Shown here piece by piece: positions 13,355 to 49,945 of a DNA stretch of 64,000 nt. A program made the translations under genes and the position numbers. Numbering within the stretch: position 1 is the first letter of the stretch; each line of letters starts with the position of its first letter. Under the pieces are notes generated by a model. It made no database searches. It was not told where the DNA came from and saw only the letters and a program-made list of their open reading frames with translations. The stretch lies in NCBI RefSeq assembly GCF_054482595.1, contig NZ_CM137008.1; one strand, written 5' to 3'.

Positions 13355-14419
13355 TTACTTAATGAATGGGCGGGTCAGCAGACCGACAGGGCCAGTGGTG
13401 TACCAGCGACGGTTGCCGCGACTGCGTGAGTCGCGCCCAACGGCCTGCGTCAGACGATCGAGGATAATGGCGAGGATCACAATCCCGACGCCGCCAACGG
13501 TGGCAAGCCCCATATCCAGACGACCGATACCGCGAAGTACCATCTGACCCAGCCCGCCGACGGCAATCATCGAGGCGATGACCACCATAGAAAGGGCCAG
13601 CATCAGCGTCTGGTTAACGCCCGCCATAATGGTCGGCATCGCCAGCGGTAACTGAACTTTGAACAGCATCTGGCGCGGGCTGGCACCGAATGAGCGCGAG
13701 GCTTCAATCAGATCCGCCGGAACCTGGTTAATCCCCAGAATGGTCAGACGGATAATCGGCGGCAGAGCAAAGATGATCGTCACCACCACGCCCGGCACGT
13801 TACCGATACCAAATAGCATGACGATTGGCACCAGATAAACAAACGCTGGCGTGGTCTGCATGGCATCAAGCAGTGGACGAATAATTTTCGCCGCTCGCGG
13901 ACTTCTCGCCAGCCAGATCCCCAACGGCAAACCGATGACGATACAGAACAGCAGGGCGGTTAACACCAGCGCCAGAGTCACCATTGCCTGCGACCAGGCA
14001 CCGATTGCGCCGATGGCAATCAGCGAAACCAGCGTCGCCACACCCATTCCGACCCCGGAAATCTGCCAGGCGATGAGAGCGAAAACGATAATCGCCACCG
14101 GTGCGGGCATACCCAGCAGCAATTGCTGGAAACCGTTGAGGATATAATCAACCGGAACGCGCACGCCCTGGAAGACGGGACGGAAATGGGTAACGACCCA
14201 GTCGATCCCTTCAGTGACCCAACTGTCGAGCGGGATCAGCGTTTTATGGAACGGATCGAGAATATTAAAATGCTCGACGTTTGGCGCAGGCGTACTGGTC
14301 AGCCAGTCAGCACCACCGCCGTCAGTCGGTGCAGTCGCCGGTGTACCCCAGGCGTCTGCGGATTGTGCGGCACTGTCCGCCGCTGGCGTGGTATCCCACG
14401 GATTATTTTGATCAGCCAT
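13355..14419 (-). CDS. proW: glycine betaine/proline ABC transporter permease ProW
   Basis: 354-aa membrane ORF. Confidence 0.94.
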
Positions 14420-15614
14420 TATTTACCCCCTCACGATCTAAAGCGCGCAGCAGCATTCCTTTCGAAATGATGCCGACATACTGTTGGTCCTCGTCGACCA
14501 CGGGCACCGCACAGGGTGCCTGTCCGACATGAGAGAGCAACTCGCTAAGAGGCGTTTGTGCATCGACTGCTAACGGCGCATCAATCAGCGCCGCATCAAG
14601 ACCTTGCTGCTGCGTTAACGCGGTTTTAAGCGAATCGATGGAGACAGCGCCGACAAACTTATTACCGCGTTCGATAACGTAGCCATATTCGCGATCTTCA
14701 TCCTGCAATAATTTCAGTGCCGAACGTGGGCCGAAGCCAGGGGTTTTACGAATTAAGCCATTTGGTGTCCGGCGGGCAATATCTTTCGCACTGAATACCT
14801 GACTAATATCAACGCCACGGAAGAAGGTACGGACATAATCATTCGCCGGATTATTGAGAATTTCATCCGGTGTGCCGACCTGTACCACTTCACCATTTTG
14901 CATAATGGCAATTCGGTCGCCAATACGCATGGCTTCATCGAGATCGTGGGAAATAAAGACAATGGTGCGCTGATGTTTCGCCTGTAATTTTACCAGCTCA
15001 TCCTGCATCTCGGTGCGAATTAATGGATCGAGCGCCGAGAAGGCTTCATCCATTAATAAAATATCCGGATTAATTGCTAACGCGCGGGCTAATCCCACAC
15101 GTTGACGCATCCCGCCAGAGAGTTCATCCGGGTAGCTGTGGGCATAATTTTCCAGCCCGACCTGACGCAGTGCATCAATGGCTTTTTCCCGGCGTTCTTC
15201 GGCATTAATTCCGGCCAATTCCATACCAAACGCAGTATTGTCCAGCACGGTCATATGCGGCATTAAGGCAAAGGACTGGAAGACCATCGCAATCTTTTTT
15301 CTGCGCACCTCACGGAGTTCGGCGTCGGATATTTTGGCAATATCCACACCATCAATCAGTACTTGCCCGCGGGTGGGTTCAATCAGGCGATTGAGAAGGC
15401 GTACCATTGTGGATTTACCCGAACCGGATAATCCCATGATGACAAATATCTCGCCTTCTTCAATGGCCAGACTGGCGTCTTTTACGCCAAGCGATAGCCC
15501 AGTTTTTTCCAGAATTTGTTCTTTTGAAAGTCCTTGTTCGATATATTTGAAAGCTCGCTGTGGATGCTCACCAAATATTTTATAAAGATTTTTAATTTCT
15601 AATTTAATTGCCAT
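14412..15614 (-). CDS. proV: glycine betaine/proline ABC transporter ATPase ProV (with CBS domains)
   Basis: 400-aa ORF with Walker [10 protein letters not shown] and ABC signature LSGGMRQR. Confidence 0.95.
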
Positions 15615-15969
15615 GCAATAGAAAGATTCCTGTTATTTGTTTATGTCGATACATTACCCAATGGAAATAGTCACTTTTTTCTACCCTAACATACTGAGAA
15701 TCTGAGGCAACCCCTGAGGGCAAATGTGGCATGAATATTGATGTGAGCAAATCGCCGGAATTTCCCGTGATATAAGGGCTGAGAGCAAATCGAGAAAAGT
15801 TGATATTTTTTGTCAAAGATAGCGAAAAAACGCCTGAATATTGTGGTTTCAGGCGAATAATGCAACAGAGTATCAGTGTAGATCACCACAAAATATTTGC
15901 GTGATAAAAAGCTATTTGGCGGGAATTATTTCCCTGTCGCGGGTAGTGATATTTTTGAAAATAACACCC

Positions 15970-16938
<969 letters not shown>

Positions 16939-19083
16939 TTAAAGTGCACAGGAGACGCAGCCTTCAATTTCAGTGCCTTCCAGCGCCATCTGACGCAGGC
17001 GGATGTAATAGAGCGTTTTGATACCCTTGCGCCAGGCGTAAATCTGCGCTTTGTTGATATCGCGAGTGGTGGCGGTATCGGGGAAAAACAGCGTCAGCGA
17101 CAGCCCCTGATCGACATGGCGAGTCGCTTCCGCGTAGGTGTCGATGATCTTTTCTGCGCCGATTTCGTAAGCGTCCTGATATAGCGCCAGATTTTCGTTA
17201 GTCATAAACGGGGCAGGGTAGTAAACGCGTCCTGTTTTGCCCTCTTTGCGTATCTCTACTTTCGCCACAATCGGATGAATACTCGACGTAGCATGGTTGA
17301 TATAAGAGATAGAACCGGTTGGCGGCACCGCCTGGAGATTCTGGTTGTAAATGCCGTATCGCATCACGTCATCGCGCAGTTGCGCCCACATCTCACGGGT
17401 AGGTAACGTAATACCGCTGCGGGCAAACAGTTCGCCAACTTTCGCCGTTTTCGGCTGCCAGTTACCTTGCAGATATTGGCTGAAATATTCACCACTGGCA
17501 TAGCGTGACTGTTTGAACCCGGCGAAGGTTTGACCGCGTTCGCGCGCCAGCAACATCGAGGTACGCAGTGCGTGCCAGGTGATGGTATAGAAATAGAGAT
17601 TGGTGAAATCCAGTGCTTCCGGCGAACCATAAGCGATGCCTTCCCTCGCCAGATAACCATGTAAATTCATCTGCCCCAGTCCGATGGCGTGCGAGGCGGC
17701 ATTTCCGGCTTCGATGGAGGGCACGCTGCGGATATGACTCATATCTGACACCGCCGTTAAACCGCGTACGGCAGTCTCTACCGTGCGGGCAAAGTCGGGG
17801 GAATCCATGGTGTGGGCAATATTCAACGAACCTAAATTGCAGGAGATATCATGGCCTGTGCGGGCATAGTCGAGATTCTCGTTATACTCTGAGGCGCTGT
17901 TAACCTGCAAAATTTCTGAGCAGAGATTACTCATATTTATGCGCCCGGCGATAGGGTTAGCACGGTTTACCGTGTCTTCATACATGATGTACGGATAGCC
18001 AGACTCAAACTGGATTTCTGCCAGTCGCTGGAAGAAATCACGGGCGTTGAGGTATTTTTTGCGAATGCGTTCATCGGCAACCAGTTCGTCATAGTGTTGG
18101 CTGATGGCCACATCGGCAAACGGCTTGCCATAAACTCGCTCTACGTCATAAGGCGAAAACAGCGCCATCTGCGCATTCTCTTTTGCCAGATGGAAAGTGA
18201 TATCCGGGATCACCACGCCCAGCGACAGTGTTTTAATGCGGATTTTTTCGTCGGCATTTTCCCGTTTCGTGTCGAGAAAACGCAGAATATCGGGATGATG
18301 AGCATGTAAATAGACTGCACCAGCCCCCTGACGAGCGCCGAGTTGGTTGGCATAGGAAAATGCGTCTTCCAGCATTTTCATCACCGGAATTACGCCAGAA
18401 GATTGATTTTCAATACGTTTAATTGGCGCGCCCGCTTCTCGCAGATTCGACAGCAAAAATGCCACGCCGCCGCCGCGTTTCGACAGTTGTAGTGCGGAAT
18501 TTACCGCCCGGCCAATCGACTCCATATTGTCTTCAATACGCAGCAGAAAACAGGAAACCAGTTCGCCGCGCTGCTGCTTACCGCAGTTGAGGAATGTCGG
18601 CGTGGCTGGCTGAAAGCGTCCTGACAGCATCTCATCAGTGAGCTGCGTCGCCAGTGTTTCATCGCCTTGTGCCAGCGTCAGCGCCACCATCGTGACTCGA
18701 TCGGCAAAATCTTCCAGATAACGTTTACCGTCGAATGTCTTCAACGTATAGCTGGTGTAAAACTTCCATGCCCCGAGGAATGTCTGGAAACGAAAACCGC
18801 TGGTGTGTGCGTGGGCAAACAGCGTAATGACAAAGTCGCGAGGGTAGCGATTAAGAACGCTTTCATCATAGTAACCTTCGTTGACCAGCCAGTTCAGGCG
18901 CTGCTGCTGGCTACTGAAGGTCACACTGTTCGGACGCACATGCGTCGCAATAAAGGCGTCAACGGCCTGGCGGTCTTTATCGAACTGAATGCGACCTGCG
19001 CTATCGTAGAGGTTAAGCATCGCATTCAGCGCGTGATAATCCATCGTTTCCTGCGTCAGGCGTTCTGCGGTTGTCGTTGCCAA
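16939..19083 (-). CDS. nrdE: class Ib ribonucleotide reductase alpha subunit
   Basis: 714-aa ORF. Confidence 0.95.
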
Positions 19084-19466
19084 AATTCGGTTACTCCTTT
19101 ACGAACGTTTTCGATATCGCTTTGCGTACCCATGAGTTCAAAACGGTACAGCCACGGCACGCCGCATTTCCGGGCAATCACATCTCCGGCGCGGCCATAC
19201 GCCTCACCAAAGTTGCGATTACCCGAAGCAATAACGCCGCGCAGCAATGCCCGGTTATGCTCGTTGTTTAAAAAGCGAATTACCTGTCGTGGCACCGCGC
19301 CAGCCGTACCGCCGCCGCCGTAAGAGGGCACGATCAGGATGTAAGGCTCGTCTACCTGAATCCGTTCCCGCTCATTGAGCGGGATGCGCACCGCGGGCAG
19401 CCCTAAACGTTCGATAAAACGCTGCGTATTTTCGGAGCTGCTGGAGAAGTAGACGAGCTGGCTCAT
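19056..19466 (-). CDS. nrdI: flavodoxin-like NrdI
   Basis: 136-aa ORF overlapping nrdE start. Confidence 0.93.
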
Positions 19467-19708
19467 GCACTGGCCGCGTGTGGCGCTGGATGCAGACGGT
19501 TAATCATGTCCGGACGGAAACCAGACCAGCTAAGATCGCCAGCAATCACTACCGGCAACTGACGAAAGCCCTGAGCACGCAACGCTTCTGCCGCTTCAGG
19601 AACGCGATCGACATTAATCATTTCAAAATCAAAGCCCCGGTTTTCCATCGCCCGTTTGGTGGCGTGGCACTGAACGCAATCGTTACGAGTGTAAATAGTA
19701 ATGCGCAT
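19463..19708 (-). CDS. nrdH: glutaredoxin-like NrdH
   Basis: 81-aa ORF with CVQC redox motif. Confidence 0.93.
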
Positions 19709-19955
19709 GATTCGTATTTCCGTTTAAAATGAAGATACGGCGCGATGATACGCGTCGGGTTGTCTCTCTGTTGATACAGAGATACTAGATGTAGTTGAAA
19801 AAAGATTCAACCACACAATATATAGCAAATAGTGGTCGGAATTACCCTGGATATGAGCGTGACGGGGTAGGGGGATTTGTGTGATTTAAGAGGCAAAAAG
19901 AAACCCCGAAAACAGGCTTCGGGGTCAAAGACGCGTATTTATTATCATTTTTGCA

Positions 19956-20285
19956 CTACGATTTGCGCATGCTTAACAGTGCGCCGATAAAAATACCTAC
20001 CGCAGCTGCTGTACCCACGCTACACCAGGGTCTTTCACGAACAAAAGAATCCGCGCAGCCAACGGCATCGCGTGCGGCTTGCTGGACGCGAGTACGACCA
20101 TGCATTCGCGCCCTGGTTTCTTTCAGCAATGCCTGAGCTTTACTTCGTGCGGCTTCAGCTTCCCCTTTGGCGTCGCTGCCCCAGGACTTCAATACAGATT
20201 CGAGGCTGTCAGCTAATTGATTGACATCATTCTGGATATCCTGCACGCCATCATCAACGTCGTTGCGGTTCGGTCGGTTAAACAT
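19956..20285 (-). CDS. ygaM: ElaB/YqjD-family membrane-anchored protein YgaM
   Basis: 109-aa ORF MFNRPNRNDVDDGVQDIQNDV... with C-terminal TM anchor. Confidence 0.88.
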   Translation of the reverse strand: MFNRPNRNDVDDGVQDIQNDVNQLADSLESVLKSWGSDAKGEAEAARSKAQALLKETRARMHGRTRVQQAARDAVGCADSFVRERPWCSVGTAAAVGIFIGALLSMRKS

Positions 20286-20436
20286 ATGATCCCCCATTAG
20301 AATTCGATGTAATTTTCAGTGTAGACCATAATTTTCTTAACTGAGGTTCATCGCGGCTTTATGGACTTTTCTGAAAGCGTTGTGAATGCGCAATCAGGTA
20401 AGGTAGGCCCGCGGTTGATAATAACGAGGATCAAAT

Positions 20437-20781
20437 ATGTATTTACGACCAGACGAGGTGGCGCGCGTACTTGAAAAAGTCGGTTTTACTGTCGATGTGG
20501 TAACCCAGAAAGCGTATGGTTACCGCCGTGGGGAAAATTATGTCTATGTTAATCGCGAAGCGCGAATGGGACGTACCGCACTGGTAATTCATCCAACATT
20601 AAAAGAACGTAGTTCGACACTGGCTGAACCCGCTTCCGATATTAAAACTTGCGATCATTATCAACAATTTCCGCTCTATTTAGCAGGCGAGCGACACGAG
20701 CATTACGGTATCCCGCATGGCTTTAGTTCGCGTGTTGCGCTTGAACGTTATTTGAATGGTTTATTTGGCGAAGCCAGTTAA
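20437..20781 (+). CDS. ygaC: uncharacterized protein YgaC
   Basis: 114-aa ORF at the conserved locus position. Confidence 0.85.
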
Positions 20782-20817
20782 AGACGCGACTGGCGATGCC
20801 AGTCGCGAAAAGAAGAG

Positions 20818-21267
20818 TCAGGCTTTTACCTGCTGGTAATGGCTGACTTTAAACAGTCGGCGGCAATAATCGAGGAAGTAGCCATAAACCGCCCCCATCA
20901 ACATCGAAACAACGATGTTTGAACTGACCGCCGCCATAATCTGATGCCAGTCTGCGCCCACCACTAACAAGATCGCCACATACACCGGTGACTGGAACGT
21001 CACATAAGCCAGGATATCCGCCAGATTTTTTATCCAGCCCGACGGGCTAACTTTGCGTGCCGCGCGCATAAACAGATCGCGGTACATACCGTATGGCCAT
21101 GCAATTAAGATGTTCACCGGAATCGCTACCAATCTGGAATAAAAAGACTGTTCGAAGCTCATTCCGGAGAGGAAAACTTCAATACACATGTTCACGACAG
21201 AACAGTAAACAACCATCGCGAACGTATCTGCAACTGCATGACGCAAGCGTGACTGCGGTGAGAACAT
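20818..21267 (-). CDS. alaE: L-alanine exporter AlaE
   Basis: 149-aa membrane ORF. Confidence 0.88.
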
Positions 21268-21934
21268 GCTAATGCTCCTTAATAAAAGCGTAATGGGATG
21301 TTAATGGAGATGAAAGCAGTGGATCTCATTGCCATCTGCATTTTCGCATAGCGTATATCGCTGGCTATGACTAATCAATTAGTGAAAAATTTTTATTTAG
21401 TCAGTTTTTGTAGATAAAATATTCCGTAACGGCTCGTTTTTTGTACATTGTGGATTTTTACATGCCGATATGATTTATTTTCAATTAAATCAATTAGATA
21501 TGACCTTGCCTTTAATTTCACTAATGAAAGTTTGGGGGTGAGGTAACGCTATAAGCGTAGAGAATTCGGTGTATGTCGTGACCGGGTCATTTACAGCATT
21601 TTTTATGCCAGAAAATGTACATTAACAGCAGAAAGCACCAGTGATGGATGTTTTCTTTTATTCTGTTATATTGCATTTTTATTCACTTTGGTTTTGTCAG
21701 GCTTGCGGAATTAGCGAGCAGAGAGCGCCGTTCTGTTCACCAATAATCTAAATTACTCATCAAAATGGCTAATATATAATCTTGAAATTATTCTGAGAGT
21801 TTCAGAAAATAACAGCTGAAATAATCTCGCGCAGGACTGTAAATAGATTAAATTTTGTGGAAATATAATAAGTGATCGCTTACACTACGCGACGAAATAC
21901 TTTTTTGTTTTGGCGTTAAAAGGTTTTCTTTATT

Positions 21935-45461: not shown

Positions 45462-45480
45462 GGCGTGGCGGGGAGAGCAT
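45462..45480. other. cos-like site (P2/P4 cohesive-end-like 19-mer)
   Basis: GGCGTGGCGGGGAGAGCAT matches the recalled P2/P4 cos GGCGAGGCGGGGAAAGCAC at 16 of 19 positions. Confidence 0.45.
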
Positions 45481-45690: not shown

Positions 45691-47352
45691 ATGAGGTATG
45701 TTGAAAATATGAAAATTCTAGTAACTGCACCTTCAAGAAAAAATCACCCAAAAAATAATGTATTGTATGATTTTATATTGCAACAAGATGATTGGAATGA
45801 TTTTAGTTTTATCACTAAGTATCATTTATACATTACAACGAAACTTACTGGTCTTGATGAAATAGAGTATGCTGGGGTTGTTAAAATTATAAAAAAAGAT
45901 CAGTCTGAAGCTGATTACTACATGGTTGAAGAAGGCGAGTTTTCATATTTGAGTGACGAGTTTTGTTCTGTGGGACAATCTCTTGATTATTATGGGAGGC
46001 TCTCTGAATTGGGGAGTGAAATTTGTGAGGGGATATTGACATCATTACGCGACATTAATATGTTTGATTATGTTTCTGAGGGTTTCAAAAATGAAAGAGC
46101 TTGGGAACGTTCTATCATGAGAGACTTAAATAATGATGATGATATTTTTATTCTTCCAAAGTTTATAATAAAAAATCAGTTCTCGGCTATACCTAGTATA
46201 GACATGAAGTTTTCATTTATGTATTCAGGAATGATTAATACTCTTTCGTTTGATTTCGATTCAATACAATATGGATATTTTGAAAGTGAAAAACTACCAT
46301 GTAGAATGTCCGTAATTGTAGGCCGGAACGGTTGTGGGAAGAGTACAACATTGGCAAGACTTTCTAGGGTTGCTTATTCTTCAACTCAGGACAGAAAAAA
46401 AGAACAGATAGCCAAAATTGGTGAAATTCTTCCAGAGGGATTAGGTTTTCCGAAAATAATCAACCTTTCATACAGTGCTTTTGATAGTTTTCAAATACCC
46501 GGGTGTACTTTTAAAGAAAAGAAACAGCTAAGGCAAGACATACTTGATGGGAAAGGTAGGTATATATATTGCGGAGTCAGGGATGTTGGTGCTGAATTGG
46601 ATTATGTATTGGCTAATGTAGATGAAAACAATATGGATATAGAGTTTATTACATTAGATAGGCAAGAGAGAACCATATTAAAACCTCTTGAAGTACTTAG
46701 TGAAGAGTTTTATGGTGTCTTGATAAAAATACATAAAGATAGTGATAAGTGGAATTTGTTTAATAAAGTGATGATGAAGTTGAGAGAAGAGGTTTCATTA
46801 TCTGAAATTATTGATGAAATCTTTAAAGATGATTTTATTCTTAAATCTAAAGAATATTTTCATAGGTTGAGTACAGGGCATAAATTTGTTTTGCATTCGA
46901 TGGCGCATATTTTGTTGTATATTGAAAAAAGATGCCTTGTTTTATTTGATGAGCCTGAAACTCATTTGCACCCGCCATTGCTTGCGGTTTTAATGAGCGC
47001 TCTGAGAATTGTTTTGAACGAAGTCGATGCTTTTGCTATTGTTGCTACTCATTCACCTGTGGTAGTACAAGAAACATTAAGTAAAAATGTTAATGTTATA
47101 ACTAGAAATGGGGAGTTTACTGATTTTCAACGACCTGAAATTGAAACTTTTGGTGAGAATATTGGAGCAATAACATCATCAGTATTTTCATTAACGACTC
47201 AAATAACTGATTATCATGATGAATTAGACAAGCTAATAATAGAATATAAAAATAATAATAATCCATTAGATGACATTGAAAAATGTTTTGATACAGGTCT
47301 TAGTACACAAGCAAGGTCTTATGTAATATCTAAATTAGCGGTAAAAGGATAA
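45691..47352 (+). CDS. ABC-type (AAA15/AAA21, OLD-family-like) ATPase with about 200-aa N-terminal domain of unknown function
   Basis: Walker A GRNGCGKST, signature-like LSTGHK, Walker B LVLFDEPETHLHP, H-loop ATHSP; SD AAGGA 11 nt upstream of ATG. Confidence 0.8.
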   Translation: MRYVENMKILVTAPSRKNHPKNNVLYDFILQQDDWNDFSFITKYHLYITTKLTGLDEIEYAGVVKIIKKDQSEADYYMVEEGEFSYLSDEFCSVGQSLDYYGRLSELGSEICEGILTSLRDINMFDYVSEGFKNERAWERSIMRDLNNDDDIFILPKFIIKNQFSAIPSIDMKFSFMYSGMINTLSFDFDSIQYGYFESEKLPCRMSVIVGRNGCGKSTTLARLSRVAYSSTQDRKKEQIAKIGEILPEGLGFPKIINLSYSAFDSFQIPGCTFKEKKQLRQDILDGKGRYIYCGVRDVGAELDYVLANVDENNMDIEFITLDRQERTILKPLEVLSEEFYGVLIKIHKDSDKWNLFNKVMMKLREEVSLSEIIDEIFKDDFILKSKEYFHRLSTGHKFVLHSMAHILLYIEKRCLVLFDEPETHLHPPLLAVLMSALRIVLNEVDAFAIVATHSPVVVQETLSKNVNVITRNGEFTDFQRPEIETFGENIGAITSSVFSLTTQITDYHDELDKLIIEYKNNNNPLDDIEKCFDTGLSTQARSYVISKLAVKG

Positions 47353-47357
47353 TACAT

Positions 47358-48203
47358 ATGTGGACACTACCTTTACCAGATGATGCGGATAGAATGAGCG
47401 AGTTATTAACCGCTTTAACGTATAAAAATGGAAATCCTAAGTATGCTTTAACACAAGATGAAAAGGATAAAATTGAAACTATTTATACTTTATATCACGA
47501 TCGTAAAGCAACTCCCTGTGCTGAATTTTTAGCAGAGGAAATAAGTGATGAAACCCAAAATGCTATAAAAACAGCTTATTCAGAAGTGCAAATAAATGGA
47601 CGGCTTTCAACCCTTCGCTCAAGGATTTTATTAAGTTCTAAAAAATGCCCATTATGTGGGATCGAATCATCAACCGACCTAGATCATTATCTTCCCGAAT
47701 CAATATATAAATGTCTCGCAGTATATTCAAGAAACCTGATACCGACCTGTCATAAGTGCAATAATAAAAAAAGAGCTGGTGTAGCAGAAAATGGAGTTGG
47801 ATTTATTCATGTGTATTATTTTGATGAGCCCGATGGTGTATTTTTCGTTGCCAATACTGAAATGATAGATGGTGCTTTAGTAATTGATTTTAATATCAAT
47901 ATGATCGAGGGTATGACTCGAGAGGTATATGATTCATTATGCTTTCAAAATAGAGTTGTTAACCTAAATGAAAGGTTAAAGATGGAAGCGAATGATTTTT
48001 TAGGGGGGCTCTATACTTCACTTGAAGAAACATATAATTCTGCAGGCCAAGAAGGATTAAGATTATTTCTAAAAAGAACTAGGGATGACTATACCAGACG
48101 TTATGGGCTTAATCATTGGAGAAGAGCATTGATAGATAGTCTATCCGATAATGTGGAGTTCCTTGACGCTGGTTTTATTACTGCCTTAGGAACTCCAGAG
48201 TGA
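47358..48203 (+). CDS. HNH endonuclease-domain protein (281 aa)
   Basis: CPLCG...DLDHYLPESIY...NLIPTCHKCNNKK HNH/zinc-finger motif; start 5 nt after the ATPase stop. Confidence 0.8.
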   Translation: MWTLPLPDDADRMSELLTALTYKNGNPKYALTQDEKDKIETIYTLYHDRKATPCAEFLAEEISDETQNAIKTAYSEVQINGRLSTLRSRILLSSKKCPLCGIESSTDLDHYLPESIYKCLAVYSRNLIPTCHKCNNKKRAGVAENGVGFIHVYYFDEPDGVFFVANTEMIDGALVIDFNINMIEGMTREVYDSLCFQNRVVNLNERLKMEANDFLGGLYTSLEETYNSAGQEGLRLFLKRTRDDYTRRYGLNHWRRALIDSLSDNVEFLDAGFITALGTPE

Positions 48204-48205
48204 GT

Positions 48206-49399
48206 TTACTGGTGGGGATGAATATGTCGTCCCCACCAATTCATCAATTCAATTCTTGCGTGTAAATATGTTGAGCGATTGTAGGCTTTTCGTACTTCAT
48301 TTCTATCTGAATGAGCAAGAGCAGCCTCAATTACATCAGCATTAAAACCGGCTTCATTCATTGCCGTACTTGCAATCGAACGTAAACCATGTGCAACCAA
48401 TTTCCCACCATAACCTATTCGCTTAAGTGCAGCATTGGCAGTTTGGCTATTCATAGGTTGTTTTGGATTATTTCTGCTGGGAAAAACATGTTCTCGATGT
48501 GCACTAATAGGTTTCATCACATCCAGAATTTCTAATGCTTGTGGTGATAAAGGAACAATGTGTTCACGCTTAGCCTTCATTCGTTCGGCGGGAATCGTCC
48601 AGAGTTTGGCATTGAGATCGATCTCTACCCACCGAGCACCAGAAGCCTCAGAAGGGCGCACTAGGGTCAGAAGCTGCCATTCAATAAGACAGCGAGTCGG
48701 AACAGACAGATTCGACATGACCAGGGAACGCATAAGCTTAGGTAATTCTTCTGGCCGTAGCGTGGGCATATTTTGCTTTTTGGGTTTCTCAAAAGCCATT
48801 CCTACACCCGAAGCCGGGTTGGCATCTATCAGACCGGTATTAACCGCATAAATCATTATTTCGTTAATACGCTGAACTAGGCGACGAACCGTCTCTAATG
48901 CGCCACGTGCTTTGATTGGCTCCAATGCTTCAACAATCGTTCTGGCCTTTATATCCTGAACGGGCATCGCACCGATTGCCGGGAACACGTCTTTATCCAA
49001 AGAACGCCAAATATCCTTTGCATAATCCTCTGTGACACTTCTGCTTTTAATCTGGAACCAGTTAGCGGCCACAGTTGAGAAAATGCTGTCTAACTCAATC
49101 TGGCGTTGTGCTGACGCTTGCTCCTGTTGCTGTTGTGGATCCATGCCTTGCGCGAGCGTGGTTAAGTGCTGGTCGCGTATCTGACGAGCTGCTGCGAGTG
49201 TAAGGGCAGGGTATGAGCCGAGACTCAAATTTGTGCGGCTGCTGCTTCCCGGTCGTTGATAACGGAAGCGTCAGAGTTTTTTACCGGAGGTTTTGACGAG
49301 TAAGAACAGGCCATCACCATCATGCAGGGTGAAGTCTTTTTCGCGGGGTTTCGCTTTGAGGATTTCGTTGTTAGTGAGGGGGCGTGTAATGCGCGCCAT
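48206..49399 (-). pseudogene. intA: P4-type tyrosine integrase with in-frame TGA at codon 43
   Basis: N-terminus MARITRPLTNNEILKAKPREKDFTLHDGDGLFLLVKTSGKKL then TGA then RFRYQRPGSSSRTNLSLGSYPALT... in the same frame; stop sits where related integrases have Trp (TGG). Confidence 0.75.
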
Positions 49400-49449
49400 G
49401 TCTGGATCCCTTCCATAATTGGTACACGTTTAATGGACCACAGTATAGC

Positions 49450-49477
49450 GTGTACCTAAACGTGTACCAATTTTCTC
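49450..49477 (+). repeat. 28-bp direct repeat (int-proximal copy)
   Basis: GTGTACCTAAACGTGTACCAATTTTCTC identical to 42613-42640. Confidence 0.8.
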
Positions 49478-49514
49478 TGGATTTAGCCGGATGTTCTCGG
49501 ACAACGACAGACAC

Positions 49515-49548
49515 AAAAAAGCCCGCAGGGCTTGTGCCGTGCGGGCTT
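49515..49548 (-). terminator. intrinsic terminator downstream of ssrA
   Basis: minus-strand hairpin GCCCGCACGGCACAAGCCCTGCGGGC followed by TTTTTT. Confidence 0.7.
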
Positions 49549-49582
49549 TCTGTACTTCACCGGACGTATCCGGATCATCATT

Positions 49583-49945
49583 TGGTGGAGCTGGCGGGAG
49601 TTGAACCCGCGTCCGAAATTCCTACGTCCTCGGTACTACATGCTTAGTCAGTCTTTACATTCGCTTGCCAGCTGCGGACGGACACGCCACTAACAAACTA
49701 GCCTGATTAAGTTTTAACGCTTCAACCCCAGGCAGGGCCTCCACGCGATCTCTTTTGGGTTTGACCTCTCTTGATCCCCGTCCTAAGAGCGGAGGCTAGG
49801 GAGAGAGGGCTCTAAGCAGGTTATTAAGCTGCTAAAGCGTAGTTTTCGTCGTTTGCGACTATTTTTTGCGGCTTTTTACGAGGCCAACCGCCCCTCGGCA
49901 TGCACCTTGGGTTTCGCAAATCCCGTCGAATCCAGAATCAGCCCC
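49583..49945 (-). ncRNA. ssrA: tmRNA (SsrA), 363 nt
   Basis: reverse complement begins GGGGCTGATTCTGGATTCGACGGG and ends ...GCGGGTTCAACTCCCGCCAGCTCCACCA. Confidence 0.97.

Follow-up and report, generated by a model that had tools for sequence, protein, structure and literature searches.

A recent nonsense mutation in the integrase of a decaying P4-like satellite at the ssrA 3' end of one Escherichia coli lineage

Results

The integrase gene int of a P4-like island next to ssrA was analyzed within a window of 64,000 nucleotides, the window being the whole stretch of DNA under study. We conclude, with a probability of roughly 0.93, that int is a recently pseudogenized integrase gene inside a decaying P4-like satellite at the 3' end of ssrA, and that this remnant is fixed and vertically inherited in one E. 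coli lineage. The comparisons described below establish the mutation and its ancestral state, the protein domain that it affects, the other lesions of the element, and its clonal distribution. The decay of the integrase is ordinary mobile-element decay, in a gene that RefSeq already marks as a pseudogene.

The int frame is interrupted by a single stop codon in the arm-binding domain

On the minus strand, the int frame translates into 397 codons that are interrupted just once, by a stop in the context ...TSGKKL-stop-RFRYQRPGSS..., and the open reading frames and codon concerned are as follows.

48206..49399, minus strand: int pseudogene, a P4/CP4-57-type tyrosine integrase (translation, Pfam, and the PGAP annotation of strain Santai)
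49271..49273, minus strand: TGA at codon 43 of int, a TGG (Trp) codon in which G at 49271 has changed to A
49271..49399, minus strand: N-terminal int ORF of 42 codons, comprising about half of the arm-type DNA-binding domain (ORF listing)
48206..49228, minus strand: downstream int ORF of 340 codons with a TTG start, comprising the core-binding and catalytic domains (ORF listing)

The single in-frame TGA at codon 43 that the initial annotation had described is borne out by the translation and by the split of the frame into ORFs of 42 and 340 codons; its placement at about 49272-49274 was one base off, as the codon runs from 49273 to 49271. Read on the plus strand, the change at 49271 is C-to-T, which makes it a C:G to T:A transition. 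In strain Santai, PGAP labels the gene as a pseudogene with the product name "integrase domain-containing protein, internal stop."

The repaired protein contains the domains Arm-DNA-bind_3 (DUF4102; residues 8-94), Phage_int_M (residues 107-198), and Phage_integrase (residues 213-378), with Pfam E-values ranging from 5e-23 to 9e-32. This is the full three-domain architecture of P4/CP4-57-type integrases, in agreement with the earlier identification of the gene as P4-type, and the stop falls within Arm-DNA-bind_3. The complete R-K-H-R-H-Y catalytic set is kept in the repaired protein (R248, K275, H337, R340, H363, and Y373). Because the repaired protein matches the consensus at all 36 of the 36 columns that are conserved at a level of at least 90% among 140 relatives, these catalytic residues among them, the TGA is the sole visible lesion in int. 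What the window gene lacks relative to a full-length integrase frame is continuity at codon 43.

The stop codon replaced an ancestral TGG

The closest known systems are the ssrA satellites of the E. coli strains GF3-3 and KSC9, whose integrases (WP_126681218.1 and WP_053286429.1, respectively) have the same length, domains, and catalytic residues as the integrase in the window. These genes lie at the same distance of 183 bp downstream of ssrA and are accompanied by the same arm repeats. In contrast to the window gene, both are uninterrupted, carry TGG at codon 43, and are listed in complete 11-kb elements (that of KSC9 without alpha). The DNA alignment at this shared locus reads TGG CGC TTC CGT from codon 43 onward in both strains, with bases identical to the window for ~50 nt downstream and ~12 nt upstream of the codon, at an overall int nucleotide identity of 91-92%. 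The repaired protein is 92-96% identical in amino acid sequence to its top database matches, the Klebsiella homologues among them reaching 96%. The KSC9 element (L008, 6001-6251), which served as a comparator with an intact int, is itself without alpha and without the distal arm repeat.

Conservation of the tryptophan extends well beyond these close relatives. In 140 relatives drawn from a library clustered at 50% identity, all of them at most 55% identical to the window protein except one (92%), the column of Trp43 is occupied by Trp in 130, by Phe in 7, and by another residue in 3. Trp is likewise found at the aligned position in P4 Int (NP_042035.1; 36% identity over the full length), which is an intact protein of 439 residues as opposed to the interrupted frame of 397 codons in the window, and in the solved arm-binding domain 3ju0. 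The initial annotation had stated that related integrases have Trp where the stop sits and had proposed an alignment with intact P4-family integrases as a check; in such alignments, GF3-3 and KSC9 have TGG and P4 Int has Trp at this position.

The repaired 397-residue protein exists in public data, where an exact-sequence look-up located it on only two contigs. One of these (L007; Logan, run ERR11525761) equals the window over 3,209 bp save for a G in place of the A at 49271. The other (L006, from an ENA metagenome assembly) has TGG at codon 43 together with seven other substitutions and a 1-base gap, for which reason it represents a separate lineage. As both contigs carry TGG, the ancestral allele is directly observed, and the TGG-to-TGA point mutation that had been proposed from the window alone is confirmed by a single-base difference in the one contig and by the same codon in the other. 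Among complete E. coli genomes the intact int allele was not found, the next identity band lying at 90-95%.

The element lies at the 3' end of ssrA and has a truncated distal core

The ssrA gene and the attachment features of the element are located as follows, the last three being given without strand.

49583..49945, minus strand: ssrA (tmRNA; ARAGORN), 183 bp upstream of the int start
49450..49477: int-proximal putative arm-type pair, GTGTACCTAAAC GTGTACCAATTT, with a 12-bp period, 105 bp from the core
42614..42641: distal putative arm-type pair, with the same sequence as 49450-49477, at 62 bp from the distal core
42537..42560: distal att junction, CATGA-GG-GCTGGCGG-AGTCTGAAT, with the canonical TTGGTGG shortened by 5 bp

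Comparison with the empty site of strain AB66 defines the att core as the 3'-terminal 15 nt of ssrA (49583-49597; TGGTGGAGCTGGCGG on the plus strand). In AB66, ssrA directly abuts the ypjA flank (...CCAATCATGAT joined to TGGTGGAGCTGGCGGGAGTTGAAC), and therefore the insertion took place at the ssrA 3' end; the insertion at the ssrA junction assumed in the initial annotation is thereby confirmed. The second core copy, GCTGGCGG+AGTCTGAAT, lies at 42544-42560 and is 5 bp short, so that the window combines a tmRNA-adjacent integrase gene with a distal copy of the core.

Both att arms carry a perfect direct repeat of 28 bp (42614-42641 and 49450-49477), each copy containing two GTGTACC heptamers with a 12-bp period as putative Int sites. 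In complete relatives, too, the repeat is conserved on the two arms. P4 integrates in leuX. Its attP is organized like the att arms in the window: the core, a match to the 3' terminus of a gene for a small stable RNA, is flanked on either side by tandem 12-bp repeats. The arm-to-core distances in the P4 record are 113 and 54 bp compared with 105 and 62 bp in the window, and the arm repeat itself differs, being TGCCCCC in P4 and GTGTACC here. By analogy with P4, the 28-bp repeats are probably the arm-type sites that would be read by the very domain truncated by the stop. The 28-bp repeat was also considered as the att core itself and was rejected, since it is absent from the AB66 empty site, where ssrA meets the ypjA flank directly.

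The distal junction was compared with the empty site, with GF3-3 and KSC9, and with IMG/VR loci (window 42537-42551; L004 11808; L009 4320; L010 4304; L027 237; L023-L026). In several host backgrounds the canonical distal junction consists of the flank followed by TTGGTGG and GCTGGCGGAGTCTGAAT, and the canonical TTGGTGG is present in GF3-3, in L028, and in four non-E. coli flanks. In E. coli, microdeletions of the distal TTGGTGG vary by lineage, with losses of 1, 3, and 4 bp, and of 5 bp in the window. If strand exchange takes place within TTGGTGG, the distal junction in the window would be expected to be a poor substrate for excision. To place the crossover point, IMG/VR contigs were scanned for attP in excised or packaged form (P arm, core, and P' arm), and none was found; a looser attP scan of IMG/VR returned only integrated left junctions, which suggest that the crossover may lie within TTGGTGG.

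The satellite has suffered further disabling lesions

At the same ypjA-ssrA site, GF3-3 holds a complete P4-like satellite of 11 kb with the order alpha primase, DUF5375, hypothetical, icd-like, HTH regulator, sid-like, delta, psu, DRT3a/b, and int. The island in the window, read from the ypjA side, consists of an AbaSI-like gene, an alpha fragment, psu, a cos-like sequence, an ATPase gene, an HNH gene, and int. Its degraded satellite features are the following.

43990..44660, minus strand: C-terminal fragment of the alpha primase-helicase gene, ~223 codons (PHROG primase matches, to the C-terminus of the profile only)
44723..45289, plus strand: psu pseudogene of 189 codons, with TAG at codon 92 (44996-44998); PGAP "internal stop"
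45462..45480, plus strand: cos-like sequence GGCGTGGCGGGGAGAGCAT, between psu and the hotspot

The junction of a 4.5-kb deletion was mapped, with L027 and GF3-3 as references, to ~44655-44660, with CACCGC as microhomology. Through this deletion the C-terminal fragment of alpha has become joined to the 3' end of delta, and most of alpha and most of delta have been lost together with DUF5375, the icd-like gene, the HTH (Vis/AlpA-like) regulator, and sid; judging from the gene map of P4, the replication origin would also be gone. The P4 record describes ORF88, located at the position of the deleted HTH gene, as "excisionase and transcriptional regulator." The TAG at codon 92 of psu derives from CAG, which is still present in the sister genome CP057861.1 (L017). 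Both nonsense mutations, that in int and that in psu, are C-to-T changes on the plus strand. The psu pseudogene also contains a private substitution at position 44888, where the window has T and all eight of the eight sister loci have A. The cos-like sequence has three mismatches to the cos of P2/P4. Its position agrees with the location of the hotspot adjacent to cos (PMC9122126).

A functional P4-like satellite has int, psu, delta, sid, alpA/vis, and alpha in order. In the window, int and psu carry nonsense mutations, only the C-terminal part of alpha and the 3' end of delta are left, and sid and HTH-Vis are absent. A survey of P4-like satellites described variants without alpha or psu and frequent alpA pseudogenes, with psu pseudogenes being rare (8%), and treats delta as essentially always present in functional elements (PMC8628076; de Sousa and Rocha 2021). 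Compared with the surveyed satellites, the element in the window, which is without delta, is not a functional variant but a remnant. Partial decay of P4-like satellites at ssrA is common.

The initial annotation had concluded from the stop codon that the element is probably immobilized. The immobilization holds, but its derivation from the stop alone does not, as the 4.5-kb deletion, the psu nonsense mutation, and the truncated distal core are also disabling. With several disabling lesions present, immobilization is over-determined, the stop codon being only one of its causes, and even with a repaired int the satellite would not regain its mobility.

The remnant is confined to one clonal lineage

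Of 5,426 complete genomes, exactly 15 contain the entire 7.2-kb island, at 99.9-100% identity. A comparison based on the adjacent 14-kb chromosomal flank ranks these 15 genomes first, at 99.9-100% identity, ahead of a next best match of 99.6%. The carriers thus belong to a single clonal lineage, pointing to vertical inheritance, and the coincidence of the 15 carriers with the 15 best flank matches fits an immobilized element. In CP057861.1, codon 92 of psu is still CAG and the int TGA is already present, indicating that the int stop is older than the psu stop. No int substitutions were found among the eight sister loci that were compared base by base, and dN/dS is therefore uninformative and relaxed selection not measurable. 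The inactivation of int is recent. The remnant thus provides a clean, datable case of stepwise satellite decay, in which the TGG ancestor is still in public data and the int stop precedes the psu stop.

In several sister genomes a second island (with an Arm-DNA-bind_2 integrase and AAA_21 + RloB) lies between the remnant int and ssrA, and a lambdoid prophage of 32-45 kb is also inserted between the remnant and ssrA in several sisters. The sisters with tandem insertions are L015, L016, and L018 (positions 14049-21662), and XH990, GF66.1, DETEC-C31, and 2824 by coordinates. Insertions are stacked in tandem at ssrA, and the site is still in use.

A sequencing error, readthrough, restart, or recoding is a poor explanation for the stop codon

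The initial annotation had allowed for a sequencing error, in which case the genome would really read TGG and the integrase would be intact. This is extremely unlikely. Over positions 48100-49600 (1,501-bp query), TGA included, the window is matched at 100.0% identity by fifteen complete E. coli genomes, which were sequenced independently in different laboratories and come from different hosts and countries. An exact look-up among about 15 billion proteins returned the 340-residue product on 933 public contigs and the 42-residue product on 787, compared with 2 contigs for the intact 397-residue protein. The stop site reads CTCTGACGC and lies outside any homopolymer run, with an A6 run located five bases upstream. 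An error would be in keeping with the two public contigs of otherwise identical or near-identical sequence that read TGG, but the agreement of the 15 complete genomes and of the 787 and 933 contigs makes the stop a real mutation. One deposition of the 340-residue product (P0121), HJE97219.1, comes from a metagenome-assembled genome named "Ligilactobacillus acidipiscis" and almost certainly reflects contamination of the bin by E. coli.

With TGG changed to TGA at the conserved Trp43, translation from the normal start would halt after 42 residues. A near-cognate tRNA-Trp might read the UGA and so give a low output of functional, wild-type Int. Some features are favorable to such leaky termination: Trp is the exact ancestral residue, the remainder of the int ORF is undamaged, and in E. 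coli no other stop is read through as readily as TGA, for which mostly Trp is inserted (PMC11126739). Some readthrough of UGA is bound to occur in E. coli and would restore wild-type Int at a low level (PMC11126739). The RNA past the stop, however, has no unusual structure (z = -0.59), the codon context is the same in TGG-bearing relatives with nothing to suggest programming, and the TGA allele is restricted to one clonal lineage. RF2 is also more efficient in non-K-12 strains than in K-12, and even a full-length Int would find neither a Vis/AlpA-like excision factor nor a complete distal core, with the genes for replication and packaging missing as well. Trace amounts of wild-type Int arising by UGA readthrough are plausible, but a functional integrase maintained in this way is improbable. 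The +4 base (C) was considered as an argument for leakiness and was dropped, because the published effects cover only T and G, and earlier work on +4-base effects on termination is conflicting (PMC11126739). Less likely still is that an N-terminally truncated integrase retains some activity, such as core binding or Holliday-junction resolution. The candidate products are 340 residues from the TTG at 49228 and 312 residues from the ATG at codon 86 (49144), both of which have been annotated by GenBank submitters, and the long downstream ORF does encode complete core-binding and catalytic domains. Neither start is preceded by a recognizable Shine-Dalgarno sequence at a suitable spacing, however, and no conservation backs a short isoform because relatives retain the full frame. 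A product restarted downstream would also miss the β-sheet that reads the arm sites, here the tandem GTGTACC repeats flanking the core. Fragments of λ Int without the arm domain are not known to support att recombination, and by analogy the arm-less product would be unable to carry out arm-dependent integration or excision. The probability that the UGA is recoded as selenocysteine is negligible. The gene does have an in-frame UGA within an otherwise intact frame, but RNA folding revealed no SECIS-like or other recoding structure past the UGA and no stable hairpin directly 3' of it (fold z-score -0.59); the relatives encode Trp and not Cys or Sec, and the codon is one step from TGG, an ancestral allele that has been seen. 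Pseudogenization of int by the nonsense mutation is therefore the preferred reading, and the recombination activity of the integrase has probably been lost.

Only the defense genes are still intact in the remnant

Three genes of the remnant are intact, and all of them are defense genes.

45691..47352, plus strand: AAA ATPase gene, intact (PADLOC PDC-M01A, PtuA-like)
47358..48203, plus strand: HNH-nuclease gene, intact (PADLOC PDC-M01B, PtuB-like), in the psu-int hotspot
42693..43574, minus strand: gene for an AbaSI/PvuRts1I-like modification-dependent restriction endonuclease, intact (PADLOC mREase_II; Pfam PvuRts1I-like_N + SRA)

The ATPase and HNH genes are matched by the HMMs for PDC-M01A (E = 1e-99), PtuA (E = 1e-73), and PDC-M01B (E = 3e-37) and lie between psu/cos and int, so that both HMM matches and position agree with a Septu-like cassette, and on sequence grounds the pair is a predicted Septu-like defense cargo. 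In P4, a defense hotspot is located between psu/cos and int, with Septu-type systems among its contents (Rousset et al. 2022, PMC9122126), and the ATPase and HNH genes of the window likewise sit exactly between psu/cos and int. The window differs from the described hotspot (PMC9122126) in that the carrier is defective and in that a second defense gene, the AbaSI-like one (mREase_II, E = 4e-122), is found at the other end of the element beside alpha. With the distal att on one side and alpha on the other, this gene is not located in the described psu-int hotspot, and the left part of the island that includes it is 95% identical to the complete P4-like IMG/VR element L022.

Relation to CP4-57 and significance of the remnant

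IntA of CP4-57, a cryptic prophage of E. coli K-12, has the same ssrA target and belongs to the same integrase subfamily as the integrase in the window, and a phage protein annotated as "Prophage CP4-57 integrase" is 49.5% identical to the latter. CP4-57 differs from the element in the window in that it is not a P4-like satellite, and its integrase is only about 50% identical. IntA is intact in K-12.

Beyond annotation the importance of these findings is small: the ssrA island is a fixed remnant whose sole intact genes are predicted anti-phage systems. Counts of mobile satellites should leave it out, and its integrase should not be regarded as functional. The distal att core microdeletions across lineages are the only feature that is possibly worth a wider survey. 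It is conceivable, if rather unlikely, that the int stop is one symptom of a recurrent "locking-in" of defense-carrying P4-like satellites at ssrA, to which the distinct distal-att microdeletions (1, 3, 4, and 5 bp) and the intact cargo would also belong. Such locking-in could be caused by host-level selection or by scars of aborted Int cleavage, leading to fixed defense islands; if it were true, leaky UGA-to-Trp readthrough would leave a mere trace of Int.

Elsewhere in the window, at 35419-36873, ypjCB forms an uninterrupted ORF of 484 codons, which is annotated as frameshifted in strain Santai, otherwise 99.99% identical to the window.
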